The notes beneath the pieces were generated by a model that did no database searches, was not told the origin of the DNA, and worked only from the letters and a program-made list of their open reading frames with translations. The translations under genes and the position numbers were made by a program. From Tolypothrix carrinoi HA7290-LM1 (GTDB lineage Bacteria > Cyanobacteriota > Cyanobacteriia > Cyanobacteriales > Nostocaceae), in the NCBI GenBank assembly GCA_019358935.1, contig JAHHIK010000069.1:1-43712 (forward strand): a stretch of DNA of 43,712 nucleotides, written 5' to 3'. Positions 4,488 to 33,436 of this stretch are shown here, piece after piece (the stretch's first letter is position 1; every line of letters begins with the position of its first letter).

Positions 4488-4565
4488 ACAGCATCCCTTA
4501 GGAGCGCGATCGCCCCTCTGCCAAGACAAGCGATCGCCACATCGAACACCTTCAAGTACCCGAAT

Positions 4566-5037: not shown

Positions 5038-5076
5038 ACATATGCGGGGGTAGGTGCGCCTGCCCCCACTGAAACC

Positions 5077-5505
5077 ATGTCATCCAGAGCAGACAAATAT
5101 ATCTTTCCTACCGCAGTAGCAGGACTTGGGGGAGCCTTAATCGTCGCTCCACTATTTATCCAAGTCCCTAGTGAATACGCTACCTTCGCAACTAAAAAAC
5201 AGTTGGCAGAAAGTGAAGAAATCCAGCGCGATCGCATCCAGCAGAGAAAGACGACTGCCGAGTTGATTCAAAAAACTGGACTGTTGCCAGAGGGTAAAAC
5301 TCTACGGTTAATTGACTACGACAACAGCACCAAGCGCCCTCGGATGAAGAATCAAACACTTCAACATTATTTAGCGGATGAAGTCGTATTTGTTTATGAC
5401 CGTAGCAACATTTGCGCTGGCAGAATTCAAAATCGCAAGTTCATTTGGAAGGGCGACACATCAACAGCCTGCAAAAACGCACCAGTAATTAACTCAGATC
5501 AATAA
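5077..5505 (+). CDS. Membrane-anchored hypothetical protein
   Basis: N-terminal TM segment IFPTAVAGLGGALIVAPLFI, then a short coiled coil and a soluble domain with two Cys. Confidence 0.75.
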   Translation: MSSRADKYIFPTAVAGLGGALIVAPLFIQVPSEYATFATKKQLAESEEIQRDRIQQRKTTAELIQKTGLLPEGKTLRLIDYDNSTKRPRMKNQTLQHYLADEVVFVYDRSNICAGRIQNRKFIWKGDTSTACKNAPVINSDQ

Positions 5506-5519
5506 CGCTCCTTGAAATT

Positions 5520-6182
5520 ATGGAAAGTAACAAACCACCTTTAACAACTTCAGATGGTCGAACACCTTTAAACAGTCCGCCCGGTAAACAGCAGAAAGAT
5601 AAATCAGATATTTTTCACACTCTCGCCAAATGGCTTGTTGTTTTAATTTCAATTATCCCACGGTTTTTAGCTTCAATTATGGAGCATTTTAGTGAGGCTG
5701 GAAGTGTCGGTGCTGTTGCACTTGGATCGTTAGTCTTTACAGTGGGGGTTTTGTTTACGGCTGATTCATATTGGCAATCATTATTTGAGGGCGCTGCACT
5801 GATGCCTTTCTTTGAACAAACTTGGGCTGGTTGGTCGTGGCTACCCGGTTTTACCTTGTTCCCGCCACGCGCTTGGGCAGGAATTATTTTTAATCCCGCT
5901 TTCGTTTTTGCCGTCGCCCTCAGCTTTGTTATCCAAATTATTCAATCAGCAACGATTCGCAATGCTGCATTTGGAGTAAAAGCTGTTAGCGGGGTATCAC
6001 CAAGGACAGTTGGGTTGATCGCAATCGCTTCGTGGACTTTTGATTTAATTCAAACATTTAGCAGTCGCAACCCCTTACAATTTTCTGACCCAGGTGATAT
6101 TTTCAAATGCCTCATTTATAACTTGTTTTCTATTGTGGCTGCCGAACTTGGCTATGTTGTTTATCGGATGTTAAAGGGCTAA
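5520..6182 (+). CDS. Multi-pass membrane protein
   Basis: Four to five hydrophobic segments. Confidence 0.8.
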   Translation: MESNKPPLTTSDGRTPLNSPPGKQQKDKSDIFHTLAKWLVVLISIIPRFLASIMEHFSEAGSVGAVALGSLVFTVGVLFTADSYWQSLFEGAALMPFFEQTWAGWSWLPGFTLFPPRAWAGIIFNPAFVFAVALSFVIQIIQSATIRNAAFGVKAVSGVSPRTVGLIAIASWTFDLIQTFSSRNPLQFSDPGDIFKCLIYNLFSIVAAELGYVVYRMLKG

Positions 6183-6259
6183 TTAAACGCGAACGCTTTA
6201 AGCGTGATGCTCCTCATCAAATGGGGGCGTTCGCCTGACAATCTCACACGCGCTCTTTT

Positions 6260-14524: not shown

Positions 14525-15145
14525 TTATTTTGGCAAGTCCCCATTTATATTTCCAATTGTTTGCTCAAAGGCTCTTTGAAAATTATGCGGGGGTATGCCA
14601 ACCATTAAAGCCGCGTCATTGCGTAAATGAATCTCTACATTACGTTCACGCTCAAGAAATAAATTGGCTTGCGGCAAATATCTAGGAGACAGAAAATGAA
14701 TTACCTGGTTGGAAGAGCCACGCCAACCCTTGTTGTCGTTAAGCTCTTGTATATATTGCCCATCAATAAGGACATCAATGATATTGAGAACTTTATCGAT
14801 ATTGTGATCGCATTTTGACCGCAGTTGCTCTATAGTAAAACCTGTAAAACAAATGATGGATATATCTCTTTCTTGTCTCAAGAGAGTGAATAGCTCCAAC
14901 AAAGCCTCTGCTTGAAGCATTGGTTCACCTCCTGAAACTGTTATCCCCTCTGTATTTGACGTAGAAAGCACCATATCTGCTAACAGTTTCGGCTCGATTA
15001 AAGTTGCTTTTATCATGGGTATCCAATCCGGAGAAATGCAGTTTCGGCAACGAAAACAGCAACCTTGAACCCAGATTACAAAACGCTGCCCAGGACCGAG
15101 AGTGTGTGTAGCAGGACAAATTTCTGCAATATTTAGGAGAGACAT
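14525..15145 (-). CDS. NrdG-like radical SAM (4Fe-4S single cluster) protein
   Basis: LGPG.RFVIWVQGCCFRCRNC (CxxxCxxC), GITVSGGEPMLQ, FTGF, DVLIDGQY, WRGSSNQ. Confidence 0.92.
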   Translation of the reverse strand: MSLLNIAEICPATHTLGPGQRFVIWVQGCCFRCRNCISPDWIPMIKATLIEPKLLADMVLSTSNTEGITVSGGEPMLQAEALLELFTLLRQERDISIICFTGFTIEQLRSKCDHNIDKVLNIIDVLIDGQYIQELNDNKGWRGSSNQVIHFLSPRYLPQANLFLERERNVEIHLRNDAALMVGIPPHNFQRAFEQTIGNINGDLPK

Positions 15146-18100: not shown

Positions 18101-19017
18101 AATAAACTCAACAAATAACTCAGTTGTTTTGCATCCTCACTCAATTCTTGCCAGCTAAGTTCAAAAGCAGCAGTAATACTTCTTCCTTGATGATCATCAT
18201 TAATAGCTTCTTGTGCTAGCTTTTCTTTTTCTAGTCGTTTCTGCATTGCTGACACAGATAAATCCTGTTTTCTATCTAGATACCGACCTACTAACTCTAA
18301 ACCCAAAGGCAAATAATCGAGCCATTCACAAAGCTGCTTTGCATAATCCATTTCTTTATCAATGCGCTTATCCTCTTCTCTCAGAATTGATCTCAGTAGT
18401 TTCAAAGCAACAGACTCATTCAAAACAGAAATCTCTAAAAATTTAATCCCAGGTGGTCCATAGGTTAAACGTGTTGTAATCAATACCTTAAAACGGTCTT
18501 CCGAAGGTAAGTAGTTAAAGATTCTGGCAAAATCGTTTACGTCATCGAAAACAATTAAAACTTTTCCTTCACGCCAATGTGACCAACAAAATCCCAACTG
18601 ATTGCGGATATCTAAGTCTTTTGGAGGGTCAATACCAAGAAACGAACGAGCAAAGTCTAAAATGCTCTTGGCAACATCTGTATCTCTAGCTGAGAGCCAG
18701 CAAATACCACCTCCATAGATTTCTTGGTATTGGCGTGCATATTGAATAGCTAGCTCAGTTTTACCAATGCCACCAGTACCGTAGAGAGCAATTACATAGA
18801 ACTGCATGAAGTCCTCATAGATGTTTTTAACTACCTCTTCACGACCGATAAACTCTGTAGCGTTGGGAAGAGGAACATTCATGGGAAAACCCGTAGGCTG
18901 TGAAGTTACAGGACTTGTCCCCAAAATCTGGTTCAGAATACCAACAGTTGTCGTACCCCCCTGATTCACTAAGCCTGCTTTTTGTGCAGAGATAGAATAA
19001 TTTTCATTACTGGGCAT
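15148..19017 (-). CDS. NLR-like STAND protein: short N-terminal motif, NB-ARC, kinesin-light-chain-type TPRs, C-terminal coiled coil
   Basis: FIGRE, GTGGIGKT, VLIVFDDV, VLITTR, YLPLGL, FHHLV; repeated G..HP..A....NLA..Y..QG TPRs; S-rich linker and about 200-aa coiled-coil tail. Confidence 0.92.
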   Translation of the reverse strand: MPSNENYSISAQKAGLVNQGGTTTVGILNQILGTSPVTSQPTGFPMNVPLPNATEFIGREEVVKNIYEDFMQFYVIALYGTGGIGKTELAIQYARQYQEIYGGGICWLSARDTDVAKSILDFARSFLGIDPPKDLDIRNQLGFCWSHWREGKVLIVFDDVNDFARIFNYLPSEDRFKVLITTRLTYGPPGIKFLEISVLNESVALKLLRSILREEDKRIDKEMDYAKQLCEWLDYLPLGLELVGRYLDRKQDLSVSAMQKRLEKEKLAQEAINDDHQGRSITAAFELSWQELSEDAKQLSYLLSLFALAPIPWWIVEHLQFEQKPNNVEKLRDDWLLKFSLLQRQETSLYQFHHLVREFIKNKCDQSNGTDDLKKSFCCEIMNLVNQLLRGESPDAVDNTPIMLVVTHIEEIATTFSYLMDGSEIVMSHTWLLLIYSYLGIYAQAADWGEKCQSQMASRGITKDINLLWSRYELSHIYSRQGNFRKAEKSLRELLPQAKNAFDEEEAKAVFEANVSSDLGKLLATQGYFENAENYCRESLRILEEIVAKQDRNLTPNLSLDLIPSLSALADVCRIRGKYQEAGELYEKLFELGEFESEERQQYLQKNPVIVIDVLIKFSTLYLEQGLTGAAEEFCSDAQKIVEDTFGDEHPIYAIYLSNLAQVYLAQGRHQEAEEICLQAIEINKSKDNTGHPTHAINLMNLGSIYTAQGRHEDAEILYREALEIQERIYGKEHTDVAESLLRLAVNYLEQGSADKAKPNLTKAQKMYKSVLGTSHPKYGELLCVLADVSFSQKEYEKTESLYREAIEVFQQTLGDSHPKLGEKLSVLAGFLVSQNRKEDAEQFYQKSLAVAKQVFGKDNPNVCEYMLEIAELNRSLGREAEAESMYTDAIGIYNQDKSINPDFSEGLMRLIELYKSQGRYHEVVALYKRLLDVSRQLLGNEHPNVVNILNKLASHLTNQALDDKDASKEACYQEAAKLYEEALKITKHIFKENHPSIATNMGNLAYVYESLAKFDEAGELYRQALEINTRAYGDSHQKVVMIQKALAQLDNHKKLSGSHKKEFNSPNSESSTSGASKSETLPREQPSNNEIALPIQEIKEQSTDVESKLKENLQQQKANLENELKNLTQQNNQLEDNLKKLQEQQKLFEAQIENYQQKNLAHQSTIKTVAQELIRLTQEECAKLSEPLAVVLNDLAQQRQNYQQTWDKLQTAIQQFNKYAEETDEIYSHLHAHYQADNILAQNLLPLDRNKVDRIIQTVRQLLADLDKELSDARIQHETAQKKSIVTF

Positions 19018-19066
19018 AATTTAGCTTCCTTGATTGCTGTATATTCACTTGACAATAAGTAAAACT

Positions 19067-20632
19067 TTACTTGAATCTTGATGTAAGAATATCTGCAAAG
19101 ATTTCCAATTCGCACTCTAAGCTCTGCTGAGCTTTACAGTCTTCAATCACTAAATACAATATATTTGCATGGCTGACTCGCATTCCTACTCGCCAATTGT
19201 TATCGCTAGAATAATTCGGTAATTGTCTACCATCTAACTTGACTTCTTTAAAAATACGCCCTTGTATATTGGCATCTACCCACACAGTTATAGTTAACAG
19301 ATGTTTTGTAAATGCTATTAGTAAAGGTCGGTCGATAAATTTGGTGTTTAGTAAGTCATCTAAATTTGTGCCACTTTGGATAATCGGAATCAACTGTTGT
19401 TCTTTTTCCGCATGAGCATTCAAACTTTCTCCCACAATGCCAAATGTATATGCACATCTTTCAACGGGGTCAATTAAGCTGTTAGCTATGAGACATGCAC
19501 CGTGGGAGATAGCAAAAGAACTGTGAGCATTGTTGAAGTTGGGATCAGAACGGGGGTCGTTTTCTTGAATATCCAGAGTTTGCAGGATAGCATTTTGAGC
19601 TAGGATAAATTGGGATAAATCACCTATAAGAAACAGAAAATCAAACGATTGTTGATGGCTTTGCATCCAGATTTGCAAGCGTTGGCTCATCTCCTGAATT
19701 GTGTTTTGGATAGGTGCAAATGCTTCACTGATGTGTCGGCATTTGACTGCATATCCACCACCAAAGCAATAGAGGTTGTATTCTGACATTGCCTCTGGCA
19801 TTTTCAAATATGTCATCAGTCTGCTAGTACTTTCTGGTTGAGAGTTAAGTTTTTTTAAGTCAAAATCTCTCAGTAAACGCATAAATTCAGGATTTTCTTT
19901 AGTTAAAGAATCCCCATGTTTTTGAGTATAGGCTAATTGTACACATCGGCGATCAAAGGCAAAATCTGCATCTTCTTGTGAGTCTGAATAGATAACCTTG
20001 ACTTTGTTCGTCGTACTGATGGCACACAAACTCAGGTTCAAACTACTACTCCCTAGATGACAAACTAACAGGTTGCCATGTGTTTTTAGGTGCTGGTGTT
20101 GCTTTTGCCAAATCCAGTATGCAGCAGCAGCAACAGAATCACTAATTAATTGAAAATTCTTTTCTGCTATGCCCAGTTCGTTCACAATTAGCTGCTCTAA
20201 ATATCTTTTTTCTGGACTAGTGATATCTCGGTAATAACTTTCTGGTATAGAGATAACTAGGCTGGCAATCTTACCTTTTTGCTGACTAAAACTAGAATTC
20301 TTAACTGTTGAGGAAAACAACAACTCACGTAAAAAATCTGCTGTGACAGTCATGCGTTCGCGCTGCTGTCGCTCCCGATTCCAATACTCTAAGGCATGAA
20401 AAAGCAGTTGCTTCTCAAAGCGCCCATAGCAGTCTATATTTGGGTTACAGATTATCTCAATACGAGCTGCATCACCAATTACTATGCTATTACCATCGTA
20501 TACAATCCAACCGGTAATGTGTTTTTGTTTATTATCAGACTCGTACTCAAAGATATGTAATTCACCGTTCGCTAGGTAAGAAACTACTGAGTTAGCCGTA
20601 CCAAAGTCAAGCCCAACTTGATGTGGAAACAT
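19067..20632 (-). CDS. Divergent Hsp70-family protein with degenerate ATPase motifs
   Basis: VGLDFGTANSVVS intact; SDSVAAA, VCHLGSSSLNLS and LIGDLS where EPTAAA, DLGGGTFDVS and LVGGSS are expected; AISHGACL. Confidence 0.8.
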   Translation of the reverse strand: MFPHQVGLDFGTANSVVSYLANGELHIFEYESDNKQKHITGWIVYDGNSIVIGDAARIEIICNPNIDCYGRFEKQLLFHALEYWNRERQQRERMTVTADFLRELLFSSTVKNSSFSQQKGKIASLVISIPESYYRDITSPEKRYLEQLIVNELGIAEKNFQLISDSVAAAAYWIWQKQHQHLKTHGNLLVCHLGSSSLNLSLCAISTTNKVKVIYSDSQEDADFAFDRRCVQLAYTQKHGDSLTKENPEFMRLLRDFDLKKLNSQPESTSRLMTYLKMPEAMSEYNLYCFGGGYAVKCRHISEAFAPIQNTIQEMSQRLQIWMQSHQQSFDFLFLIGDLSQFILAQNAILQTLDIQENDPRSDPNFNNAHSSFAISHGACLIANSLIDPVERCAYTFGIVGESLNAHAEKEQQLIPIIQSGTNLDDLLNTKFIDRPLLIAFTKHLLTITVWVDANIQGRIFKEVKLDGRQLPNYSSDNNWRVGMRVSHANILYLVIEDCKAQQSLECELEIFADILTSRFK

Positions 20633-20994
20633 AAAATTTAATTTATAAAACTAAACATTAAGCTGCTTGCTGTGTGTTGTTCTGTCGCTAACGCACTAGC
20701 TACAACAAAACCTACCTGACAAATTTAAGATTTACTTTACAAATCAGGTCTAACCATCGCTTTTGAGTATTGTCATAATAGTAGCCAGTGATCAACTGAG
20801 AATATCAGGATATTTTTTTGTTTTGATTTTAACTCAATTTTAGAAAACAATAATGTGCATTGTTTTTATTTTAGTGATAAACTAACCACTAATCCTAGTA
20901 AAAACCTGGATTTTTTTCTGCGTCGAGATAAAAAACTATCATTTTTTAGGTGTAAAAAGTAAAAAAAATTACATTAATAAATGCAATTAAATTT

Positions 20995-21107
20995 TATTAC
21001 TCCCTTCCCGCTCGAAGAATACTTATTTAACGAACCGCGAAGACACGAAGGACACGAAGGAGGAAGAAAAAGAAGATAGGTAATTTTGTAGCGGGAAGGG
21101 GGTAATA
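20995..21107. mobile_element. MITE with TA ends (IS630-like architecture)
   Basis: TATTACTCCCTTCCCGCT ... AGCGGGAAGGGGGTAATA (one mismatch); internal gacacgaag tandem. Confidence 0.75.
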
Positions 21108-21128
21108 GCCAACTTACAGCCTAACAAT

Positions 21129-22013
21129 ATGAGAATTGTGGAGATTGGTCATGAGGGAGTTGGTAAAACAACATTCATGGCATCTATGTACGGTACGTTA
21201 CAAAGAGGCATTGAAGGATTCAGTTTACGGGCAACTTACATCAACGATCACAATAGGCTGATTAAACTTGCCAAAAATATAGAACAGAATAAGTATCCTG
21301 CTCCTACAGACCAAAGGCACGAGTATCAATTTTACTTACAGTATCAAGGTAAAGATATTTTCCCCTTTACATGGGCTGACTATCGGGGGGGAGCTATCCG
21401 AGAAACTCAAGACAGCGAACAGGCTAGATTGTTGCAGAAAGATTTACAGCAGGCAGATGGTGTTTTAATTTTTTGTGATTGTCAGGCTCTTGTACAAAAA
21501 GATAGCCGAAGAAATCAAATTGGTAGAATGACGGCACTGATTACAAATGCGTTAAAAAATATAGAACGCCCGATTGGACTTGCGGTTGTTTTAACTAAAG
21601 CAGATTTAGTCGATGAACTAAATGAAGATGACCTCAAAATCTTTGAGGGATTGTCAAAAGCTATAAAAATCAGTAACTACATTGCAAGTATGATGATTCC
21701 GGTTGCCTGTGGGCCAGAACCGATAAATGTTCAAATACCTTTACTGTTTGTACTCTACATAGGGGTCTTTATCCAAGCCAATTATCTTGCTAAAGAAATA
21801 GAGGAACATCAGCAGATGGCGGAATACTATGAAAAACAAACTCACGGTTTTGGTGGTTTTGTACAGGAGCTGTGGGATATTTTCCAAGGCAATACTACTT
21901 ACAGAGCAATGTCTCAGGATAGTCTAGAAAAAGCGATCGCAAAGTACAAAGAATTAGAACCACTGATTGAACCTGTGGAAGCATTGAAGAAGTATCTCTC
22001 AATTGGCGAGTAA
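21129..22013 (+). CDS. TRAFAC-class GTPase 1
   Basis: G1 GHEGVGKTT, G2 PAPT, G3 DYRGG, G4 TKAD; C-terminal helical/amphipathic tail. Confidence 0.88.
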   Translation: MRIVEIGHEGVGKTTFMASMYGTLQRGIEGFSLRATYINDHNRLIKLAKNIEQNKYPAPTDQRHEYQFYLQYQGKDIFPFTWADYRGGAIRETQDSEQARLLQKDLQQADGVLIFCDCQALVQKDSRRNQIGRMTALITNALKNIERPIGLAVVLTKADLVDELNEDDLKIFEGLSKAIKISNYIASMMIPVACGPEPINVQIPLLFVLYIGVFIQANYLAKEIEEHQQMAEYYEKQTHGFGGFVQELWDIFQGNTTYRAMSQDSLEKAIAKYKELEPLIEPVEALKKYLSIGE

Positions 22014-22050
22014 TAAGACAAGATGAAAAATAAAATAAGGAGATTAACAG

Positions 22051-23187
22051 ATGTCTCGTTGGGCAGTGATCGTCTATGGTCGAACTTATGAAGTTGATTT
22101 TCGCTTCCTAGCTCTTCCTCATGACTTTAATAGGGCAGAACAAGATTGGACGATGGCCCATATCCAAACGATGACTCGTCTTGCAGAAGACTTACCAGGT
22201 AAGCCGCGATGGGCAGTTTTCAAAAATGACAAGCTTTGTGTAGTTGGGGTCGCCTGCATGGCGCGTGACCTTGGTAGTCAAGTCAATACCAACGATGAAG
22301 AAGATATAACACGAGACCAAAGAGGGCGTCCACTTTACACCTTTGTGGGGTATGCTACAAGACTCGGAGAACAAGACGTAGTTGAAATTCCTGACTATTT
22401 GAATAAAAATTTAAGCTTATTTAGCCGTCCCTACTATGAGTATGTATCTGTAAATTGGCGAGTCAAATCATATGATAGCAGAAGCAGTGTCGCTATTCCT
22501 ACAGACTACCAAGATTGTCTCCCGACTGTTGAAATTCCTGCTGACTTAAATAGAAGAGAATTTAGCTTGAATGTAGCAGAAGATGATGCAGTTTACCTAT
22601 GGTGTGATCGGGAAGAAGAAAGGCATTATCTATGGACTGCTGCTGCTGAGCAGATTCGCGCAGGTCACAATGTTTCCTTGTGTTTGGGTCTGGCATTGCG
22701 GAACAATGCTATTAATGGAGCTTTCCTCAACGCCACGGCTGCTGATGTCGCAGCAAAGGAAAAAATAATTAGGATACAGGAAAGAACTCCTGTTTCTTTA
22801 CCAGACTCTGCTTCTAAGTTAAGTGAACCCACACCGAACCTACAAAGTCCTGGGAGTGGAAAGCATAAAATAGTTTTCATATTGCTACAAGTAAGTGCTG
22901 GAATAATTGGAGCGATTTGCGGATTTCTAGTAGCTAGAATACTGAAATTGGGAACTGCTAAAGTTGCGGTCTATACTTTTGTCGGAGGGGTCATTGCTTG
23001 GATTCTACTGCTTCTTGCTTTTGCAGTAAATCTTCTGGTTAAAAATAATTCTTCTGTGAAACCTAGATTTCATCAAAATGATCGTGACTCGAACGTTTCA
23101 TCCTCCAACCAGGATCGAATGCTTGGTTTTAGAGATAAAACCGAGCAGGATAGGACAGAAGAAGATGATTTTATGGGATGGAGATAA
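22051..23187 (+). CDS. GTPase-associated (GAP1-like) protein with two TM helices
   Basis: YGRTYEVDFRF and RDQRGRPLYTFVGY; two TM helices near the C-terminus; paralog of 25357..26850. Confidence 0.7.
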   Translation: MSRWAVIVYGRTYEVDFRFLALPHDFNRAEQDWTMAHIQTMTRLAEDLPGKPRWAVFKNDKLCVVGVACMARDLGSQVNTNDEEDITRDQRGRPLYTFVGYATRLGEQDVVEIPDYLNKNLSLFSRPYYEYVSVNWRVKSYDSRSSVAIPTDYQDCLPTVEIPADLNRREFSLNVAEDDAVYLWCDREEERHYLWTAAAEQIRAGHNVSLCLGLALRNNAINGAFLNATAADVAAKEKIIRIQERTPVSLPDSASKLSEPTPNLQSPGSGKHKIVFILLQVSAGIIGAICGFLVARILKLGTAKVAVYTFVGGVIAWILLLLAFAVNLLVKNNSSVKPRFHQNDRDSNVSSSNQDRMLGFRDKTEQDRTEEDDFMGWR

Positions 23188-23189
23188 GT

Positions 23190-24179
23190 ATGCGAATTAT
23201 TATGCTCGGTCACACAGGAGTAGGTAAAACTACTTATATGGCATCGCTTTACGGGAGTATGCAACAAAGCATAGAAGGATTTAGATTAAAGGCAGTTGAA
23301 CCTGAAAACCACAGGCGATGGGTAGAAATTGCCGAGCAAATTCAGCAGGGTAAATATCCGGCATTGACAGACCAGAGACAAGAATATAATTTCTATTTGC
23401 GGTATCAAGGTAAGAATATCTTGAAGTTTGCTTGGGCTGACTACCGGGGTGGAGCAATTCGGGAAACTCAAGAAAGTGAGCAAGCAAAAGCTTTGCTTCA
23501 AGACTTGAAAACAGCAGATGGCATCATGCTGTTTTGCGATTGTAATGCTCTTGTCCAAAGCGATACGCGCAGCAATCAAATCGGTAGAATGACAACACTT
23601 GCTAGTCAGGCATTGCGAGAGTTAGACCGTCCAATGTCTTTGGCCATTGTCCTCACTAAGACTGACTTGGTAGTAGATTTTCAGGTGGACTTACTGCAAA
23701 GTCTTAATGGTTTGATTTCAGCTATCAACGCTAGTGACTTTGTATTGGGTGCGTTGCTTCCTATAGCCTGCGGTACACAGTTACGTAATGTGCCAATGCC
23801 TTTGCTGTTCGTTCTTCACGCCGCTGTCGTATTTCAAGCAGCGACGACCTATGCAGTGCTTGAGTCTCATGAAGAACGTGCCAAATCCTATGAAGCACAA
23901 AGCCGAGGGTTTGTAGGAGTAGCAGATTGGGTTATTTCCAAAATCAGTAATCAAGAAACTTATCGAGAAATGGCAGCAAAGGAGAAGAAACAAGCAGTGG
24001 AGAAGCAGCAGGAATTTGAGGAAATTATCGAACCAGCAATGTCGTTATATAACTATGTCCAGAAGTTACCCCTGATTAAACCTGACCTTGATTTAAATGA
24101 TTATGCAAGACTGCTCTCAGATAATAAAGGTAGGGTGATCGAAAATTCTGGGAATAATTTGGATATCTGGACAATTTAG
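23190..24179 (+). CDS. TRAFAC-class GTPase 2 (close paralog of GTPase 1)
   Basis: GHTGVGKTT, DYRGGAIRETQ, TKTD; probable start MRIIML at 23190. Confidence 0.88.
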   Translation: MRIIMLGHTGVGKTTYMASLYGSMQQSIEGFRLKAVEPENHRRWVEIAEQIQQGKYPALTDQRQEYNFYLRYQGKNILKFAWADYRGGAIRETQESEQAKALLQDLKTADGIMLFCDCNALVQSDTRSNQIGRMTTLASQALRELDRPMSLAIVLTKTDLVVDFQVDLLQSLNGLISAINASDFVLGALLPIACGTQLRNVPMPLLFVLHAAVVFQAATTYAVLESHEERAKSYEAQSRGFVGVADWVISKISNQETYREMAAKEKKQAVEKQQEFEEIIEPAMSLYNYVQKLPLIKPDLDLNDYARLLSDNKGRVIENSGNNLDIWTI

Positions 24180-24365
24180 ATTTTTTAATTCCCAACTAAT
24201 AGTTCATTTATAAAACAAATCTTAAGCTTGTCTGAAGAAAAGAAATTGGGTTTATTCGTATATCAAGTATAATTATTTATACCAAAAATCTGATTTGTAT
24301 AATTTAAGTTTTTCTTTATAAATCAACTCTCATAGCCGCACTGATGACTAACAAAGGAGATATTT

Positions 24366-25364
24366 ATGGCAGCCGAGGCTAAGATTACGATGTTAGGTGT
24401 TGAGGGAGCAGGAAAAACCTGCTACATGCTGGGACTATACGCGACCATGCAGTTGGGCTTACAAGGATTCACCTTAACAACTACTGACATGGATGAAGAC
24501 TTGAGATTGACTAGTTTATGGGAGAAAATGGTTGATGAAGAAGGAGAAGATCGGTGGCCCCTACCAACAGGTGGCGAGCCGCATCAATACGAGTTTGATT
24601 TCAGTTATGGTATGAGACCACTGATTAGCTTCGATTGGTTAGATTACCGAGGTGGAGCTATGAAGAATTTATCCACACAAGCAGACGTTCAGATACTCAT
24701 GAAGCGACTTTTGGAATCAAGTTGCGTGTTTTTGTGTGTTTCTGGGGAGCACTTGAGGGAAGAAGTAAGCAGTGACATGGAACTAATGTCTGTTGCCAGG
24801 AAAGCAGGAGTTGACAGAATGAATAAATTCCTGATGGATCTATCAAAAAATCTTAAGGACTCCCAAAGACCTTTTCCTATTGTGATTGTAATTACTAAGT
24901 ACGACCAATGTGCCGAACGGGCACAAGATAAGGCATCAAGGGAAAAGTTATTTGATGACATTAAAAAAATGTTCAATGCATTATTCTTGCCAAATAAAGA
25001 TTGGCTAGTGATGCTCTGTCCAGTGACTTTAGGTAAAGGGCTGGAAGAAGATAGTCTTACAGGAAAGATACAGCCTAAAAATTTACATTTACCTCTAGTG
25101 TTTGCACTGTATGCAAAGCTCCGTGAATATGCAATGACTGAACAAGCTAGGGTGAATGAAACAAAAATCAGATTAGATACAATAAAAAGTGGAAAATGGT
25201 TTCAACGATTGTTTACTGGCGACGATCAACGCGCAACTGAGTCGTCTTTAGAGAATTATCAAAATCAGCTGCAAGAGATTCAGAAAAGAATGGCTTTATT
25301 AGCTCAAGAACTAACAAACGCGCAAATGTTCCTTGGCGGGAAGGAGCAACAGGTCGATGTCTGA
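24366..25364 (+). CDS. TRAFAC-class GTPase 3
   Basis: GVEGAGKTC, WPLPT, DYRGG, TKYD; AAGGAG RBS; C-terminal coiled coil. Confidence 0.88.
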   Translation: MAAEAKITMLGVEGAGKTCYMLGLYATMQLGLQGFTLTTTDMDEDLRLTSLWEKMVDEEGEDRWPLPTGGEPHQYEFDFSYGMRPLISFDWLDYRGGAMKNLSTQADVQILMKRLLESSCVFLCVSGEHLREEVSSDMELMSVARKAGVDRMNKFLMDLSKNLKDSQRPFPIVIVITKYDQCAERAQDKASREKLFDDIKKMFNALFLPNKDWLVMLCPVTLGKGLEEDSLTGKIQPKNLHLPLVFALYAKLREYAMTEQARVNETKIRLDTIKSGKWFQRLFTGDDQRATESSLENYQNQLQEIQKRMALLAQELTNAQMFLGGKEQQVDV

Positions 25365-26850
25365 AGAAACTTCCGATATTATTCTCGATACACAAACGCC
25401 TGTATCAAAATGGGCACCCATTATCTATGGGCGAACCTATGCAGTAGATTTCCGTTTTCTTGTTATTCCTCATAACTTTGATGACCAGTTCAAAGATTCG
25501 TTATGGGAATATATTAAAGTGACAACCCGTGGAGCGGAAAATCTCCCAGAAAACCCACGCTGGATATTTATAAGGAGTAAACAACGTTGCGTAGTTGGTG
25601 TAACTTGTATGGTCAGGGATTTAATAGGTTCCCAAGCGGGCAATACTCCAGAGGATTTAACAAGAGATAAACTTGGGCGACCATTGTATGTCTTTGTCGG
25701 TTATGTTTCAGAAGACCCCATGACATCTATCATTCCAGCCATGAATTTGGAACTTTTCGCCGAGCCTTACAAAGAATTTGTCCCACAGAAATGGCAAGAA
25801 GTTTATGCTGACCTTGGCAGCAATCAAGCAGTTCCACAGGAACTGAAATCACAGTATGATAGGGAATTTACTTTGCAAGAATTAGCAACTGAGGACTTAA
25901 ATCAAGAGCGAATTTCAATTGACAAATTTTTTTCAAACAGGCAGAATTCAATTATTTTTTGGAATATATCTAATGCCATAAATATATGGTTTACTACCTC
26001 AAAAAATAATGAGCCTTTATCAATTTGTTTTGGAAATTTAAGTAAGCGAGATTTAATTACTTCTAAGTTTCAAAATGCTGTAATTGATGAGGTGGAATTT
26101 CGAGAAGTAGAGACAAAAGTGCAAGATGTTTCACCCTCACAACCTTCTCCCCAATCTCCGAAACAACAAGTTTCTCGACGGAACACTGATTATTCATCAA
26201 ATCAGCCTGTTGAGCGTAATATTCCTCGTCAAGGTGTTGAACATAGCAGTAACTTGCTGATTGATGCGTTTTCTAGTTTATCTAGTTTATATGTTGGGAC
26301 GGCTACTGGTCTGTCCCAGATGGTGCGAAGTAGTATTGAGTTGATCGGGGGAGAAGATGAGGCTAGAAAGGTCGATAAAATTATGATTACGAACCTAGCT
26401 CCTATAGTTAAGCTACTACTGCCTGATGAAGTTGTCGATGAAATGTGTTCACAAGTAGTGAAGTTAGATGAGTGGAAAAAAAGGTTATTAGCTGCCATAA
26501 GAGAACACAAAGCTCAGTTATATCAACTAGAAGAGGAAAGAGAGGATTTGCTCAGACAGGGTAGGTATGCGGAAGCTGAGGCGATAAAGAGCGAAGAAAA
26601 TCGAATCCGTCAGAAACTAAAGCTTGTAGATGACAAATTGGAAGAACTCACGAATTTAATTCCTCGAAAGCGAAGTCATTCAAAGCAGCTAGGACAGTCT
26701 AGACAGTCAGAGCAGGTAAACAGAGAAGTTCAAACAGATATGAATTTTGGTTTCAAAGAAAAAGAGCAATCTTTCGAAAATGAAGCTAAAGATAGAAGAG
26801 AAAGCACTGAAAATAACCCACCAAAATCGAAAGACCTTTGGGAATTGTAA
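25357..26850 (+). CDS. GTPase-associated (GAP1-like) protein with coiled-coil C-terminus
   Basis: YGRTYAVDFRF and RDKLGRPLYVFVGY; start overlaps the GTPase 3 stop. Confidence 0.7.
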   Translation: MSEETSDIILDTQTPVSKWAPIIYGRTYAVDFRFLVIPHNFDDQFKDSLWEYIKVTTRGAENLPENPRWIFIRSKQRCVVGVTCMVRDLIGSQAGNTPEDLTRDKLGRPLYVFVGYVSEDPMTSIIPAMNLELFAEPYKEFVPQKWQEVYADLGSNQAVPQELKSQYDREFTLQELATEDLNQERISIDKFFSNRQNSIIFWNISNAINIWFTTSKNNEPLSICFGNLSKRDLITSKFQNAVIDEVEFREVETKVQDVSPSQPSPQSPKQQVSRRNTDYSSNQPVERNIPRQGVEHSSNLLIDAFSSLSSLYVGTATGLSQMVRSSIELIGGEDEARKVDKIMITNLAPIVKLLLPDEVVDEMCSQVVKLDEWKKRLLAAIREHKAQLYQLEEEREDLLRQGRYAEAEAIKSEENRIRQKLKLVDDKLEELTNLIPRKRSHSKQLGQSRQSEQVNREVQTDMNFGFKEKEQSFENEAKDRRESTENNPPKSKDLWEL

Positions 26851-26885
26851 GCTAATAATTATACCAGTTTCTTTTACTTCACTGG

Positions 26886-27704
26886 TTATAAATTCCACAT
26901 ATCATTTTTATCTGGCTTTGAGCCTGATAGCCTTTCACGGAGGCGTTCTCGATCTTCATTAGCTTTGTTTAGTTCTGCTTGTACTTCTTGTAACTGTCCT
27001 TGTAGGCGATTACGTTCTTGTTCAACGTTGAGCAATTTTGCCTCAATTTGAGAAAGCTCTGCTTTAAGTTGAATTTGTGAGCAATTCGCCTGATGTTGTA
27101 ACTCTGATTTTTCGTTTTCTAATTTTTTGATATTATCCTGAAGATTATTTTGTTGTTGTTTGAAAGATTCTAAAGTAGCTTGAAACTGCGATCGCTCTTG
27201 TTCATATGTGTTAATTCTCTGTAAGAGACGCTCGTTTTCTTGCGTAAGTTCTGCAACCTGACTTTGCAGGTGCGATCGCTCTTGCTCAACTGTGATTTTC
27301 TCCCTAGTGATAGTCTCTGTTTGCGATTGGAGTTGCGATCGCTCCTGTTGAATTAGCTGTAATTTTGTACTCAAATCGTTTTTCTCGTGATTTAAGGATT
27401 CTATTTGTGATTCTAGGTGCGATCGCTCTTGTGCAAATTGTGATTCGCTCTGGTGTATGACTGTCTCTAACCTAGTTTTTTCTTGTTGTAATTGTGCGAT
27501 TTCTGCGGCTGATAGAGCAGGTAACCGTTGCTGCTTCACCCAAATTTCTTGTGCCCAGTTTAACTTTATCTTTTCTTTAGATATATACGCATCAGGTATC
27601 TGCCCCACAAATGTCAAGGGATAGGGCGTTAAATCCCAGCTACAAATTTGGCAAGTTCCCTCACCTTCTGTGTATTCAGAATTGCAAACAGGACAATTTT
27701 TCAT
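26886..27704 (-). CDS. Zn-knuckle plus long coiled-coil protein
   Basis: CPVC..CQIC N-terminus; repeated QERS heptads. Confidence 0.85.
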   Translation of the reverse strand: MKNCPVCNSEYTEGEGTCQICSWDLTPYPLTFVGQIPDAYISKEKIKLNWAQEIWVKQQRLPALSAAEIAQLQQEKTRLETVIHQSESQFAQERSHLESQIESLNHEKNDLSTKLQLIQQERSQLQSQTETITREKITVEQERSHLQSQVAELTQENERLLQRINTYEQERSQFQATLESFKQQQNNLQDNIKKLENEKSELQHQANCSQIQLKAELSQIEAKLLNVEQERNRLQGQLQEVQAELNKANEDRERLRERLSGSKPDKNDMWNL

Positions 27705-27707
27705 AAT

Positions 27708-30248
27708 TTAGTTCAAACTAGGAATGTCACTAATTGCAAAAGTCAGCATTGCTTCTCCAGTTAAATTCTCCCGCGATATTCTATTCTTCAACTGCCGAAG
27801 CATTTTTTCGTAAAATTTTCGCACATCTCGTCCATTGCCGAAGTTTCTGTGGCGATAATTATACATTCTATGAAAAACCTCCCTCAACTTCTTAACTACG
27901 TTTTCTGGACACTTGATTTGATTTTGCTTGCATAGTCCCATGAAAATCTCAAAAAGTTCTGTGCGGTTATAGTCAGGAAATTCGATCCTGTCACCAATTC
28001 GCGAGACAATTCCCGAATTAGCGTTGAGAAACTCCTCCATTTCCAGGGAATAGCCTGCGAGAATTACTACCAGACGATGGCGTTGATTTTCCATCATTGG
28101 TACTAGGGTATCAATCGCTTCCAGTCCAAAACTCGACCCAGCTAAAGAATATGCCTCATCGATAAACAAAACACCATCTAGAGCAGATTGAATAACTTTT
28201 TTGGTTTTGGGTGCGGTTTGTCCAACATATTCGGCAACAAGGTCGCTGTATCCCACTTCCACAAGATGTCCTTTCTTCAGTAACCCCAAGGCTTTAAAGA
28301 TTTCGCCAACTATCCGAGCCACAGTTGTTTTACCTGTACCGGGATTGCCGAGAAACAACAAATGTCTGGTTTCTAAAGTACTAACTGAATCATAGCCTTC
28401 TGCTTTCAGGCGTTGGTTGGCTCTTTCGGTGTTAACTAATTCATTGACCCTTTGCTTCACATTTTGCAACCCAATCATGTTATCCAGTTTTTGCAAGAGT
28501 TGCCGTAGATGATCTTTGTCTTTGATTCCTTGTTGGCTGATTTCTCGCTCTTCGGGTGGTAAATCCTCTAATTGAAAGGGTTCGCGGAATACATCTAAAT
28601 TTTGTTGTAAAATCCTTTGCGCTCGCCTGGGATACATTGCTTTAAACAGGTTCTCCACAAGTCCGGCGTTGCCAAACTGGGCATCTCGCTCCTCATAGAG
28701 TCGGGTAAATAAATTTCTAAGTGCTGTTTCTAGCTGAGGCGCGATGACTCCTTGTACCTCGGAGACTTTCTGGCGAAAAATTGCCATCAGTTCTTCTGGT
28801 TGATAGTCTTCAAACAGGACTTCCATGGGAAAACGTCTCTTTAGTCCTGGGTTAGAGTTGATAAACTCATTTATATTGTCAGGATAACCTGCAATAATTA
28901 CAGCTAAACGCTTCTTGTCATCCTCCATTCGCTTAAGTAACGTGTTGATAGCTTCTAAACCAAAATTATCGTTTTCTCCTTGGTTAAGATTATAAGCTTC
29001 ATCAATGAAAAGAACCCCATCTAGAGCTCTGTCGATCACACTATCTGTCTTCATCGCCGTTTGCCCTACGTACCCAGCCACCAAATCTTGACGCGCCACT
29101 TCCACAACGTGTCCCTGTTGTAGTAGCCCTAAATCTCGATAAATTTCGCCAATGAGTCTAGCAATTGTAGTTTTACCTGTTCCAGGATTACCCTTAAACA
29201 CTAGATGCAAACGAGGTGGCTCTGTCACCAGACCTTGCTGCTGATATATTTTCTCAATTTTCAACACGTCTGCTTTTTGTCTGACCACTGCTTTTAACGA
29301 CTGCAACCCAATCATTCCCTGGAGACGCTCTAAAGCAGGTTCGGTAGAGACATTGCCTGAAAGCCATTTCTGTTTTCTCGCTTCTACTAAAGAAATTTCC
29401 TGAGCTTCATCGAAGCGAGCGTACCAGTTATTCAAGGTGTAATTTTCTGCGGACATCCATTGCGACAGACGTTGAATCGTCCCCCAGTTAACAGGCTTAG
29501 GTTTCTTTTGATCGAGACGAAAATAGTGGATTAAATGCTCAATCTCATCGGCTCTGGGCGCACCTAAACGGCAAATATTTAATGATTGCCCTGCTTGTTC
29601 TCGATGTAGCAGGAAGTTATGCAGGTAAGTAAAACGATGACGCTCACAAAATTCTGCCAGAACGTTGCGATTATCGCACTGAAATACAAAAATACAACGA
29701 TTACGATTACTAGCTGGCAGACGTGACCATTCAATAATGCGCCCGAATAATTCCTGTTGATTAGTGAAGTAGGCTAGACCTTCAGCATCAGTAAACACGA
29801 TCGCTGATCGTAGCTCTGGCTCTTCCATCGCTGTCTGAAAATGGGGAATTACCGTAATATCCCTCATCAGCGATGGGGCGGAAGTAGAAGCAGTAGGGGT
29901 AGGAGTCACAGGTTCAGACCTATTTGGCAATAGTCTTTTTCTCCGTCCTAATGGCCCTGGTGTGACCATCATTTCATTGCTTGCCAGTGATAATACATTG
30001 GTAGAAGCGCGACGAGGTAGACAGCGATCGCGAGATTCGCCATCTAGAAAATAAAGTTTGCGATGCTGATTAAAGAAGAGGATACGCTGATATCCCTGGG
30101 ACTTGAGATATCGATGTAACACCCATTCAATATCACGCAGCAGCAAATCCGATGTACAAAATTGGTCGCTGGTGTTTGCGCCATAAAGAATGATGAAGCG
30201 ATCGCCTGCTGCTAAGTTCAATCCTGCCGTAACTCTCTCGACAGTCAT
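27708..30248 (-). CDS. Tandem AAA+ ATPase of the SpoVK/CbbX/EccA family
   Basis: Two modules, each with MIGL, GNPGTGKTT, LV..YVGQTA, GVLFIDEAY, AGY, FGN. Confidence 0.93.
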   Translation of the reverse strand: MTVERVTAGLNLAAGDRFIILYGANTSDQFCTSDLLLRDIEWVLHRYLKSQGYQRILFFNQHRKLYFLDGESRDRCLPRRASTNVLSLASNEMMVTPGPLGRRKRLLPNRSEPVTPTPTASTSAPSLMRDITVIPHFQTAMEEPELRSAIVFTDAEGLAYFTNQQELFGRIIEWSRLPASNRNRCIFVFQCDNRNVLAEFCERHRFTYLHNFLLHREQAGQSLNICRLGAPRADEIEHLIHYFRLDQKKPKPVNWGTIQRLSQWMSAENYTLNNWYARFDEAQEISLVEARKQKWLSGNVSTEPALERLQGMIGLQSLKAVVRQKADVLKIEKIYQQQGLVTEPPRLHLVFKGNPGTGKTTIARLIGEIYRDLGLLQQGHVVEVARQDLVAGYVGQTAMKTDSVIDRALDGVLFIDEAYNLNQGENDNFGLEAINTLLKRMEDDKKRLAVIIAGYPDNINEFINSNPGLKRRFPMEVLFEDYQPEELMAIFRQKVSEVQGVIAPQLETALRNLFTRLYEERDAQFGNAGLVENLFKAMYPRRAQRILQQNLDVFREPFQLEDLPPEEREISQQGIKDKDHLRQLLQKLDNMIGLQNVKQRVNELVNTERANQRLKAEGYDSVSTLETRHLLFLGNPGTGKTTVARIVGEIFKALGLLKKGHLVEVGYSDLVAEYVGQTAPKTKKVIQSALDGVLFIDEAYSLAGSSFGLEAIDTLVPMMENQRHRLVVILAGYSLEMEEFLNANSGIVSRIGDRIEFPDYNRTELFEIFMGLCKQNQIKCPENVVKKLREVFHRMYNYRHRNFGNGRDVRKFYEKMLRQLKNRISRENLTGEAMLTFAISDIPSLN

Positions 30249-30261
30249 ATCTATACTACTT

Positions 30262-31755
30262 TTATGATTCTTGTGCAGTCTGATTTACCTGTTCAGTTCT
30301 ACTGACCTGTTGTTGCAAGGCATCCTGAAATAAGGTCTCGATATCGCTTCTTGGCTGCTCTCTGCATACTGTGTCACCTTGAGTTTCTATACCCTGAGAT
30401 TTAAGAGCATCAAAAATTGCCTCAGCGTTCTCTTGTTGGGCAGTTTCATCCCGTAATATTTGACCAAACGAATTAATAGAAACCAAATTCTTACCAAACT
30501 CCTTGTCAGGGCTGATAATAGTGACTACCTCACCCTGGTTGTTATCTCTCAACTTTAAGATATAAGCCTTACGCTCATCATTCCCTTCGTAGATAGAATC
30601 TGCATGAGGATTAATTAAAACATATCCCATGCGACTTAAAACACCCGCTACCTTGTCCGCAATTTCTGCTCTTAACTGCGAACTCAAAATCTCTCGCTGT
30701 GCCTGTTCTACAATCTCAGCTAAACAAGGCTGTAGCTCTTCAATCTGCTGAGCAATTTCGCGGATTTGCTCCGTCGTTAAAGTTGATTCACCTGTTTGCA
30801 GACGGGTTTCAATTTCCTGGAGTTTTTGCTCATATTTTTTGAGGTTACCATTTGTCCAATAATCTACTTCTAAGCGGAACTTTTGCGATTCATCGGCTTG
30901 CCCAATTTCAATTTCATATTCACGATTGGCTTGTACCTCTGCAATTAAGCTTCTTAAATCTTCCAGAGCGGCATTATAGAGGAGCTCCCATTCCTGCTGC
31001 TTTAGCTCTAGCTCCAAACGCAAGTCAGCAAGTTTAAAGTAGGTTTGTTGGCTAATGGCGATCGCTGCTTCTAGTACACCATCTTGAATATTATTCCGAG
31101 CCAGTTTTATCTCCCGTGTGAGGTCATTGAGTTTACCAGGAGCAAAGCGTTGATGTTGGTAGTTGCGATCTATCTGCTCCCAAATCGTCTGTACGTCATC
31201 CAGAATATCCTGAGCTAAAGTAGCTTTATCCTGCTTTTCTTGCTCCAGCCGTTGCTGCAATTGTTCACGTGCTTGACGCTCTTCGTCTATGAGTTCTGTA
31301 AACTTCCGATCGAGATTTTGATTGAGTTCGAGATACTCTTTCCTTTGTTCTGCTGTAATTTCAAGAAATAGGCGGCGCTGCTCATTAAAACCCTCGCGCA
31401 TCGCATCTTCTAGGCGTTCTACCTCAGATTTGAGTGCTTCTTGCTGCTTACTTTCCGAATCACGAATTGCTTTTTGGAATTCTTTGCGTTGTTCCCGCAA
31501 GCGTTGATGAGTTTGCAACTCTAAAATTGCCAAGTTACTTTTGAGTTTCCGAGCTTCCTGCTCCTGTTGTTGCGATCGTTGCTCCAAAGGTGCAAGACGT
31601 TGCTGTAACTCTCGATTTGCCTCTTCTCGGATAGCATTAAGACGCTCCGGGAGGTCTCGCTGTAAAGAGCGCAATCTACTGTCTTGTTCACGTAATCTAC
31701 GCAGTTCCTGCTCTTCAACATTCACATAGCGACGCTTCTCTCCACTCATAGCCAT
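30262..31755 (-). CDS. Long coiled-coil protein with globular C-terminal domain; first gene of the AAA operon
   Basis: E/Q/R-rich heptads; MSGEKRR N-terminus; AGGAG RBS; 13 nt upstream of the AAA gene. Confidence 0.85.
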   Translation of the reverse strand: MAMSGEKRRYVNVEEQELRRLREQDSRLRSLQRDLPERLNAIREEANRELQQRLAPLEQRSQQQEQEARKLKSNLAILELQTHQRLREQRKEFQKAIRDSESKQQEALKSEVERLEDAMREGFNEQRRLFLEITAEQRKEYLELNQNLDRKFTELIDEERQAREQLQQRLEQEKQDKATLAQDILDDVQTIWEQIDRNYQHQRFAPGKLNDLTREIKLARNNIQDGVLEAAIAISQQTYFKLADLRLELELKQQEWELLYNAALEDLRSLIAEVQANREYEIEIGQADESQKFRLEVDYWTNGNLKKYEQKLQEIETRLQTGESTLTTEQIREIAQQIEELQPCLAEIVEQAQREILSSQLRAEIADKVAGVLSRMGYVLINPHADSIYEGNDERKAYILKLRDNNQGEVVTIISPDKEFGKNLVSINSFGQILRDETAQQENAEAIFDALKSQGIETQGDTVCREQPRSDIETLFQDALQQQVSRTEQVNQTAQES

Positions 31756-32044
31756 CTCCTTGCTATCTTCATTGATAGAAGCCTCAAAGTTTCTATTGAG
31801 GACTAATTTTTCAAATAACGTGCAAAAAGCTAGGTTAGAAAATAGATCATGACTTGCAAAGAATTGATTTCTCTGTAGTCATTGAAATGTTTTGAAATCT
31901 TAATAAAGGATTTAACCTAGCACTCCTCAGAGAAGAAAATTAATCTAGGATATTGATATTTATGATGAATGACACAAGTTTTTTAGATACTTGCAAAAAA
32001 ATGTATCACTAATTCGTTAGTATAGCAATAATCTTTACTAAATG

Positions 32045-32502
32045 ACCCCAGGACAAGCGTGCGATTTAGATGGATCTGACCCAATACGGTTCAGTTAAGG
32101 ATTTTTGGGACTGATTTTAGACCTGTAGAGACGCGAAATTTCACGTCTCTACACTCGTATTTTGGGCTTAACTGAACCGTATTGGGATCTGACCAACTAT
32201 TGCCTGAGTTAGTGGCTGACACCGTACTTGCTGACAAAGCATACGATGCGGTGAAGCGAGTGATTGAACCACTCCTGGCTCAAGGCAAGACAGTGCTGAT
32301 TCCGCCTTGATCGTAACCGCACCACAGCGCGTGATTACGATCAAGACTTGTACAAAGCCCGCCAACGGAAGTGAAAACTTTTTTGCCAAGCTCAAGCAGT
32401 ACAGGGCAATCGCCACCCGCTATGACAAACGTGCCAACAACTTTTTTGGTGCGATTTATTTGGCTGCTTCTGTTATCTGGTTGAATTGATGACACGCCCT
32501 AG
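32045..32502 (+). mobile_element. Truncated IS5-family remnant (3' part of transposase plus right end)
   Basis: TPGQACDLDGSDQLL..VLADKAYDA..ENFFAKLKQYRAIATRYDKRANNFFGAIYLA; end aattgatgacacgccctag; frameshifted. Confidence 0.85.
32082..32184. mobile_element. Nezha-like MITE (18-bp TIR, 10-bp TSD) nested in the IS5 remnant
   Basis: TIR CAATACGGTTCAGTTAAG / CTTAACTGAACCGTATTG; TSD GGATCTGACC at 32072 and 32185; internal GTAGAGACG hairpin 32124-32153. Confidence 0.9.
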
Positions 32503-32878
32503 TAAGAGAATCTTTAAAAATTCTTAAATTAAACCTATTGCCTCAACAGTAACCAAATCATTGCAATATACACAAAATTTTGAGATTCTACGAGACAGAG
32601 GGAGTGTGATGGTTGTGTACAATGAGGATTACAGCTAATTGAAAATACCGTGGGCACACGTAAATTAATCACGCCTGTGGAGAAAACGACCTCTGCTTGG
32701 AACTAGAAATAGAAACAACTAAGTCAACTCAAAGAAGCAGGAAATCCTCAAGAGCGATGAGAGCAATCCCCATTCCGTTACGAAGCGTAATGTGGCGAAA
32801 ATGTCAAAAGACAAGTCAAAGTAAATATTTCATTAACGATATCAACCTCTTCATATCCATTGATAAAGGATAGGTTCT

Positions 32879-33352
32879 ATGGCAGCAATGACAATGACGG
32901 CTACGGCAATTGGTACCCTGTTTCTAATGAAAATTGGCGAGGGGGCAGCGACAAAAGTTGGGGAACAATTTGTTGAGAAAATTAGGGAGTTGCTATCACC
33001 ACTAGTGCGTGAAAAAGCTAGTAAATTGCTATCACTGCTTCGTATAAAACTTCCAAATACAGCAAAGGCTATAGAACAAGCCCCCAATTCTCCGTTAAAT
33101 GTGGATACGGCTGAGGTTGAGATAAAACAAGCTATTCAGAACGACGGTGAACTTGCTCAAGCCATCCGGGAAGTAGATGAAGTAGTAAAGGCTGATCCAA
33201 AGCTTACTCAAGCGGTTAAAGAAGTGGTAGACGATTTAAAGTCTAAACCATTAACCAACCAAAGTTTTACAAACATAATCGAAAAAGTAGTGAACTTGGC
33301 TCAGGGAACAGGCTCTAGCATTAAAATTGATAACCAAACCATACACCTTTGA
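32879..33352 (+). CDS. Bell-like helical protein with C-terminal candidate amyloid motif
   Basis: Hydrophobic Gly-rich N-terminal helix TATAIGTLFLMKIGEGAATKVGE, helical core, C-terminal IEKVVNLAQGTGSSIKIDNQTIHL. Confidence 0.65.
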   Translation: MAAMTMTATAIGTLFLMKIGEGAATKVGEQFVEKIRELLSPLVREKASKLLSLLRIKLPNTAKAIEQAPNSPLNVDTAEVEIKQAIQNDGELAQAIREVDEVVKADPKLTQAVKEVVDDLKSKPLTNQSFTNIIEKVVNLAQGTGSSIKIDNQTIHL

Positions 33353-33386: not shown

Positions 33387-33436
33387 TGCCAATAGTTTTA
33401 TAGCTATTCTTTGCCAATAGTTTTATAGCTATTCTT
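33387..33436. repeat. 25-bp tandem duplication
   Basis: tgccaatagttttatagctattctt x2. Confidence 0.9.

Follow-up and report, generated by a model that had tools for sequence, protein, structure and literature searches.

The 43,712-nucleotide contig JAHHIK010000069.1 of the cyanobacterium Tolypothrix carrinoi HA7290-LM1 (assembly GCA_019358935.1, here G000, 99.65% complete), analysed in its entirety and referred to below as the window (G000:C69), carries between 14.5 and 33.4 kb an NTPase-rich cluster of 11 genes in which the genes for an NLR-type receptor and a small Bell-domain protein are embedded. These two proteins probably constitute a cognate, non-adjacent amyloid-signalling pair of the bacterial amyloid signalling sequence (BASS) type 5. 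The NTPase cluster to which the pair is joined is so far undescribed, and its effector appears to be exchangeable. The two divergent genes have their start codons 13,862 bp from each other, and both open reading frames (ORFs) and both terminal peptides lie where a first, sequence-only reading of the window had placed them. The evidence comes from the motifs and architecture of the two proteins, the fusion of the NLR to a cluster subunit and the co-occurrence of partner genes in related loci, all of which are shown.

The ORF at 32879..33352, regarded as Bell-like in the sequence-only reading, can be assigned as a Bell protein since its Calothrix orthologue (P0002, 68% identical) ends in a tail that exactly matches the entry C07_s023 of the published BASS training set (supplement of PMC8086366). 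Judged by the order in which the clusters are given and by a set size of 50, cluster C07 would correspond to BASS5. An hhalign comparison of the window Bell with that of locus L071, the tail of which resembles C07_s001, gave 99.3% over 142 columns. Bell homologues are mostly 120-160 residues long, and 50 of 301 genomes from the order contain a match. The predicted model is helical over residues 2-141 (mean predicted local distance difference test score 72.8) with a tail (145-157) scoring below 50, and residues 1-19, comprising helix 1, are the most hydrophobic segment of the protein (mean 1.43). The ORF has no meaningful family in Pfam, NCBIfam or PADLOC, and a fold search with the model, which was built on a shallow alignment of seven sequences, gave no match, to Bab, HeLo, MLKL or any other fold, at Z of at least 5 and none at E 0.001.

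The NLR lacks an N-terminal effector domain, as had been noted earlier, with no Pfam domain preceding the NB-ARC (residues 62-288, Pfam E 2.4e-15), in which Walker A (GTGGIGKT) and Walker B (VLIVFDD) motifs can be recognised and which is followed by many tetratricopeptide repeats (TPRs). About 50-60 residues precede the NB-ARC, rather than the ~35 first estimated, with a Pro-free motif at about residues 6-32 (Q/N/G/V/I fraction 0.58) leading into an S/T/P linker. This placing of the motif directly before the NB-ARC is as expected of the NLR of a BASS pair.

A motif profile was built from 86 of 134 Bell-like tails picked by a loose pattern, excluding the window Bell, its six closest homologues and every NLR sequence. 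Among 5,174 N-termini called mechanically in the window's genome, that of the NLR ranked first with 20.0 bits, the next scoring 10.0. The window Bell tail likewise ranked first among 19,570 C-termini (31.2 vs 13.7 for the next), a rank that is partly circular because the profile tails came from Bell homologues. By the same measure, the N-termini of ORFs beside canonical Bell genes reached 21-26 bits in five of 32 short loci, with one more at 10.7. The profile therefore places a BASS-type motif, and motifs of the same family, on both proteins. Three further Bell-like matches are present in the G000 genome. One belongs to a canonical adjacent Bell/NLR pair (G000:C2:126262-128914) with a motif like cluster C12 (putatively BASS7), differing from that of the window with cross scores of 27-29 vs its own score of 94; another has a Ccya03-like tail and precedes a STAND-like frame that runs off the end of its contig (G000:C154:492-950); the third is shortened to 69 residues (G000:C175:127-336). 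As these matches differ in motif or are shortened, and as both window termini hold the top ranks, each window protein is the only strong candidate partner found for the other in this assembly.

A feature overlooked in the sequence-only reading is that the last ~200 residues of the NLR correspond to the C-terminal half of a conserved coiled-coil subunit of the core, which in most related loci is a stand-alone protein of ~350 residues encoded between the Hsp70-like and radical SAM genes. Of 389 genomes from the family, 11 gave a match to the coiled-coil domain, which is part of a long frame in five; for the order, the corresponding numbers are 37 of 401 sampled genomes and two. A protein search for the domain returned 13 long carriers, 11 of them with NB-ARC annotation. 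In a phylogenetic tree, 12 fused proteins form one clade (99/97) separate from 12 stand-alone proteins, and the N-terminal ~150 residues of the subunit were not found in any fused locus nor elsewhere in G000. Tree and gene content indicate that the NLR arose once, with a motif-NB-ARC-TPR unit replacing the N-terminal ~150 residues of the cluster's coiled-coil subunit. The NLR and radical SAM genes are 2 bp apart in the window and overlap or lie within 20 bp of each other in most loci. An Atlas search with the stand-alone subunit gave only leads under 0.9, and a search for shorter coiled-coil relatives returned only two proteins, missing the known ~350-residue forms and hence being insensitive; a viral scan gave four distant NB-ARC/TPR loci and a metagenome scan two loci, one a duplicate. 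In the related protein P0018, residues 1-60 hold the N-terminal motif as an exact tandem duplicate. Separately, a second Hsp70-like gene plus a coiled-coil protein is found in L087 (10189-13610), L095 (2369-5615) and L107, the ends of these coiled-coil proteins being what we take to be GrpE-like with no Pfam GrpE match.

Five fused loci were read, namely the window, Brasilonema L047, Calothrix NC_019728.1, G925 and G620:C107 (the L048 locus), with the loci of P0010, P0012, P0015, P0017, P0018 and P0019 outside this comparison. A candidate partner is present in all five, being a Bell in four and a CHAT protease in the fifth, whereas no Bell match was found within 25-40 kb in any of 12 unfused loci, one flank being shorter than 5 kb in five of them. 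A further five loci (G116, G338, G045, G182 and G311) were excluded from the 12 as having no coiled-coil subunit, and none has a Bell match. In Brasilonema the gene order is as in the window, with the Bell 360 bp from the 497-residue coiled-coil gene, and in Calothrix the same genes are reshuffled with the Bell adjoining the first GTPase. In G925, Bell, Hsp70-like, NLR and radical SAM genes are collinear with the Bell 1.9 kb upstream of the NLR, and there is no double-GTPase gene in 60 kb. The Bell is retained at three different positions across the fused loci. Since the G925 order makes the 14-kb gap look like module shuffling, and since the arrangement in which the pair brackets the GTPase/AAA core holds for the window's gene order only and differs in NC_019728.1 and G925, bracketing was rejected as a design feature.

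At G620:C107 the gene for the CHAT protease (Pfam E 1.5e-16, with recognisable HG and CE dyad motifs) lies 2.2 kb from the NLR and is divergent to the Hsp70-NLR unit, and there is no Bell on this 43-kb contig. The CHAT tail aligns gaplessly to the N-terminus of its own NLR, the two having IGV[YF]....V.I in common, and the G925 Bell and NLR have in common K[IV]VN...I..Q.NN. From these loci the effector need not be a Bell, its place being taken by the CHAT protease in G620:C107, and the killer part of the cluster appears to be exchangeable. Relatives of the G620 CHAT protein have a variable C-terminal slot occupied by NB-ARC, BASS3-like motifs or other adaptors, and loci L123-L132 hold a CHAT family with such a slot and a conserved upstream gene of ~310 residues. 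One of the slot domains is presumably EAD1-like.

Several observations weigh against a cognate pair, the first being the low direct similarity of the two termini. The ungapped shared pattern is [QE]K-x5-QG-x4-[VI]-x-I-x-NQ-x-[LI] with 6 identities in 21, retaining the [QE]K, QG and NQ elements first described with a spacing of x5 rather than x4 and with the later G out of register. The BLOSUM62 local score of the window NLR and Bell is 24 (shuffle p=0.22), at which level pairwise similarity was rejected as proof of pairing, and the resemblance originally judged by eye stands only at the level of the motif family. Equal or better matches to the NLR N-terminus were given by 75 of 134 other Bell-like tails, and to the Bell tail by 252 of the 5,174 genome N-termini. 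The G925 (p=0.074) and G620 (p=0.065) pairs are not significant singly, leaving the Brasilonema (p=0.0005) and Calothrix (p=0.0045) pairs as the only significant direct similarities of the five. Chance resemblance between two low-complexity ends rich in Q/N/G, as the window score taken by itself would allow, is nevertheless very improbable, being largely refuted by the first rank genome-wide at both ends and opposed by the orthologue in the published set and by the two significant pairs. In a 5x5 matrix of pair scores, the cognate pairing came first among 120 permutations with either gapped setting and was in the top two when gaps were disallowed, a preference that is suggestive given the presence of only about three lineages. 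The NLR-side motif has also been exchanged with no matching Bell change (Calothrix/P0146 vs window/P0008 type), two NLR-side variants occurring with near-identical Bell tails. Only three of ten related NLR N-termini reach 20 bits, with the others at 2.3-10.3, and when 1,150 locus C-termini are ranked by the motif profile the CHAT tail is not in the first 15.

The distribution of the genes adds further points of this kind. The window genes, 13.9 kb apart and divergent, fall outside the 5-kb window of the published screen for such pairs, in which most pairs lie close together and 91.3% were collinear (Dyrka et al., bioRxiv 10.1101/2020.01.06.895854), unlike those of G925 (1.9 kb) and G620 (2.2 kb, CHAT). 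With all 12 fused proteins in one clade and the fusion of single origin, the contrast of 5/5 vs 0/12 amounts to about two independent contrasts. A 66%-identical Bell orthologue in G474 is an orphan, having no NLR in the surrounding 40 kb, and neither of the two NB-ARC matches (E 1e-20) in that genome has an N-terminus that scores. A 58%-identical Bell in G936 adjoins a different NLR, indicating that this Bell lineage changes partners. Such cases would fit a Bell that is a loosely coupled defence-island passenger that responds to a different sensor or to whichever motif of the family is present, with the NLR motif a relic of the captured receptor. The frequency of Bell-like genes in the order and the better fit of the NLR motif to unrelated Bell tails than to its own (up to 52 vs 24) point the same way, but with no other N-terminus in the genome above 10.0 bits, a Bell kept through rearrangements, and a motif region that the 10 relatives examined retain and that has drifted in parallel in G925 and G620, this explanation is unlikely. 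The G936 arrangement also provides an instance of this tail type on an NLR encoded next to its Bell. At that locus (L119, G936:C750, 1300-2134) a degenerate in-frame copy of the Bell 3′ half begins directly past the Bell stop codon and is followed by an NB-ARC-TPR frame, the NLR-side motif having apparently been born by duplication of the effector's end.

A last point concerns the state of the Bell itself. Unlike a typical Bell, that of the window has no MEP start, beginning MAAM where all six closest homologues have MEP, and it lacks the acidic residue at position 2 or 3 present in 95 of 113 homologues. Descriptions of Bell give a MEPIS-type start with an acidic residue at 2-3 as frequent and not obligatory, and the Bab preprint reports that mutations in this region affect Avast2 defence (bioRxiv 10.1101/2024.11.07.622273). 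It is conceivable that an ancestrally cognate pair has weakened or is in decay on this plasmid, with any remaining action of the NLR passing through the core only. This would account for the change from MEP to MAA, a cognate score below those of the other four pairs, a second half of the NLR motif unlike that of P0008 and the mobile-element debris upstream of the Bell gene. Decay is unlikely in view of two intact reading frames, a helix 1 that is still hydrophobic, an NLR motif scoring like those of canonical partners (20.0 vs 21-26 bits) and a Bell region with only 28 differences over ~650 bases from that of a contig of run X2, in which NLR, core and Bell are in the window's order and the first ~35 codons of the NLR have been replaced.

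If the NLR and Bell are a cognate pair, as is favoured here, the pair would travel with a larger cyanobacterial conflict cluster. A trigger, probably a phage or rival mobile element, would be sensed by the TPRs or via the core, and by analogy with NWD2/HET-S and Bab/Agp the NB-ARC would oligomerise, such that the clustered N-terminal motifs could nucleate a cross-beta fold that converts the Bell tail and frees hydrophobic helix 1. The freed helix would then damage the membrane and the infected filament cell would die. Membrane damage, fibril formation and cross-seeding by the window pair are what the analogy with Bab/Agp and HET-S would predict; in the accessible literature fibril and prion tests cover BASS1, BASS3 and BASS11, not C07/BASS5. 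The least-supported step is that the coiled-coil tail may keep the NLR docked on the Hsp70-like/radical SAM/AAA core, an idea suggested by the retention of the coiled-coil domain and the close coupling to the radical SAM gene. The 14-kb gap would have arisen from shuffling of transcription units and, as templating acts in trans, adjacency would not be required. A bolder interpretation, offered tentatively and as doubtful, is that one subunit of an undescribed cyanobacterial multi-NTPase machine, made up of Hsp70-like, radical SAM, double AAA+ and coiled-coil proteins plus optional GTPases and their longin-like partners, has had an NLR built into it. This NLR would guard or report on the machine and alarm a distant, exchangeable executioner, either a pore-type Bell or CHAT, by amyloid templating. 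Were this true, it would unite BASS signalling and NTP-dependent conflict systems, so far treated separately, and adjacency-based screens would miss distant pairs.

Table 1. Positions of the NLR, the Bell protein and the neighbouring cluster features in the window.
Feature	Position	Strand	Basis and remarks
NrdG-like radical SAM protein	14525..15145	-	Family match and synteny; starts 2 bp past NLR stop
NLR, 1289 residues	15148..19017	-	BASS-type N-terminus, NB-ARC, TPR array, C-terminal coiled-coil domain
NLR C-terminal ~200 residues	15151..15750	-	29-45% to C-half of the ~350-residue stand-alone coiled-coil protein
NLR-side amyloid-signalling motif, residues 6-32, putatively BASS5-type	18922..19002	-	Profile rank and composition
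Hsp70-like ATPase	19067..20632	-	Pfam HSP70 E 5.7e-5; synteny; gene 1 of Hsp70-NLR-radical SAM unit
Optional GTPase module	21129..26850	+	Double-GTPases at 21129, 23178 and 24366; paralogous partners at 22051 and 25333
Core unit	26886..31755	-	Zinc-ribbon coiled coil at 26886; SpoVK-like double AAA+ ATPase at 27708; 497-residue coiled-coil protein at 30262
Decayed transposase-like remnant	32050..32500	no strand	Between core and Bell gene
Bell-domain protein, 157 residues	32879..33352	+	Helical 2-141, hydrophobic helix 1, MAAM start
Bell-side motif, residues 129-157, cluster C07 (putatively BASS5)	33263..33349	+	Orthologue tail and C-terminus rank

The 105-bp repeat at the contig termini, together with genes for a CyRepA1-type replication protein, ParA and a relaxase (Pfam/NCBIfam), identifies the window as a circular, complete and mobilisable cyanobacterial plasmid of 43.6 kb. 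The transposase-like remnant beside the Bell gene (Table 1) is presumably IS5-like. It contains a 107-bp element (32080-32186) flanked by perfect 20-bp inverted repeats, and the remnant is absent from the Brasilonema locus with its gap of 360 bp. A second short element with terminal inverted repeats (32 nt, 81%) lies at 20995-21107, both elements marking borders between transcription units of the cluster. A perfect 25-nt tandem repeat (33387-33436) lies between the Bell stop and the end of the relaxase gene, and positions 3123-8242 hold a series of plus-strand ORFs with no family match, one encoding a 660-residue protein with a faint P-loop match. A promoter scan was at shuffle level (3 vs 4.3).

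The double-GTPase module is an optional part of the cluster. Three window proteins match DO-GTPase1/2 above the Pfam cut-off, all with DYRGG at Walker B, a motif in which the DO-GTPases of GAP1 systems have a conserved Glu. Their partner proteins (22051-22800 and 25333-26850) have no Pfam match, and no GAP1 model was among the Pfam matches of 11 partner homologues at E up to 1. The partner genes are positioned as expected of GAP1 partners and the predicted fold is longin-like, the best match of the N-terminal ~160 residues of the model being a Lokiarchaeal longin (Z 8.7, root-mean-square deviation 4.2, 142 aligned) with most of 21 matches at Z of at least 5 being longin-type GTPase regulators or trafficking proteins (longin/DENN folds). 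From the model, the partners could be regulators resembling guanine nucleotide exchange factors or GTPase-activating proteins, and a literature search found nothing on longin-like partners of double-GTPases. With no GASH or FNIII Pfam match among 33 window proteins at E 0.01, the surrounding cluster resembles a GAP1 double-GTPase system without passing as one.

With the pair carried on a complete mobilisable plasmid, the five loci, three motif variants and two effector types offer natural variants for specificity tests. Partners may lie far beyond the 5-kb range of the published screen, which might explain Bell genes regarded as 'orphan' and NLRs regarded as 'headless', and the pair is a possible output for an uncharacterised cluster, the coiled-coil subunit of which is as widespread in the order as given above (37/401 genomes).

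Bell/NLR BASS pairs, with CHAT as an alternative effector, have been described by Dyrka et al. (bioRxiv 10.1101/2020.01.06.895854), with motif sets in PMC8086366. The window pair shows most features of these, having a Bell with a C-terminal motif, an NB-ARC-TPR receptor with an N-terminal motif and a cyanobacterial host, and is unlike them in the distance between its genes, in the missing MEP start and in that the NLR is fused to a core coiled-coil subunit within an 11-gene NTPase cluster. The close pairs in G925 or G620 may already be in Table S2 of that study; three NLR-side words and three identifiers are absent from the examined part of the PMC8086366 supplement, in which the pair may still be listed. 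A literature search, most subscription journals lying outside its coverage, found no paper linking BASS signalling to such an NTPase cluster. The anti-phage system Bab/Agp, which carries BASS11 and is the basis of the abortive-infection model (bioRxiv 10.1101/2024.11.07.622273), likewise has a small helical effector with a hydrophobic helix 1 and an amyloid tail and a TPR-bearing sensor, but it is a two-gene system of adjacent genes with a TPR-GreA/B-PIN sensor, another motif and a shorter domain. The double-GTPase/GAP1 systems, as set out by Kaur et al. (2020, PMC7159879), share with the window paralogous DO-GTPases each followed by a partner gene, a zinc ribbon, an Hsp70-like component, variable effectors and a multicellular host. 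The window differs in having three GTPases, partners with no Pfam GAP1, no GASH/FNIII match, an optional GTPase module and a core with a SpoVK-like AAA and an NrdG-like radical SAM protein, and the words 'amyloid' and 'SpoVK' have no occurrence in the main text of that paper. Fungal NWD2/HET-S, in the accounts given in the two preprints (bioRxiv 10.1101/2020.01.06.895854; 10.1101/2024.11.07.622273), differs in its HeLo domain, HRAM motif and adjacent genes, and is like the proposed pair in that an NLR templates its effector via a short motif.

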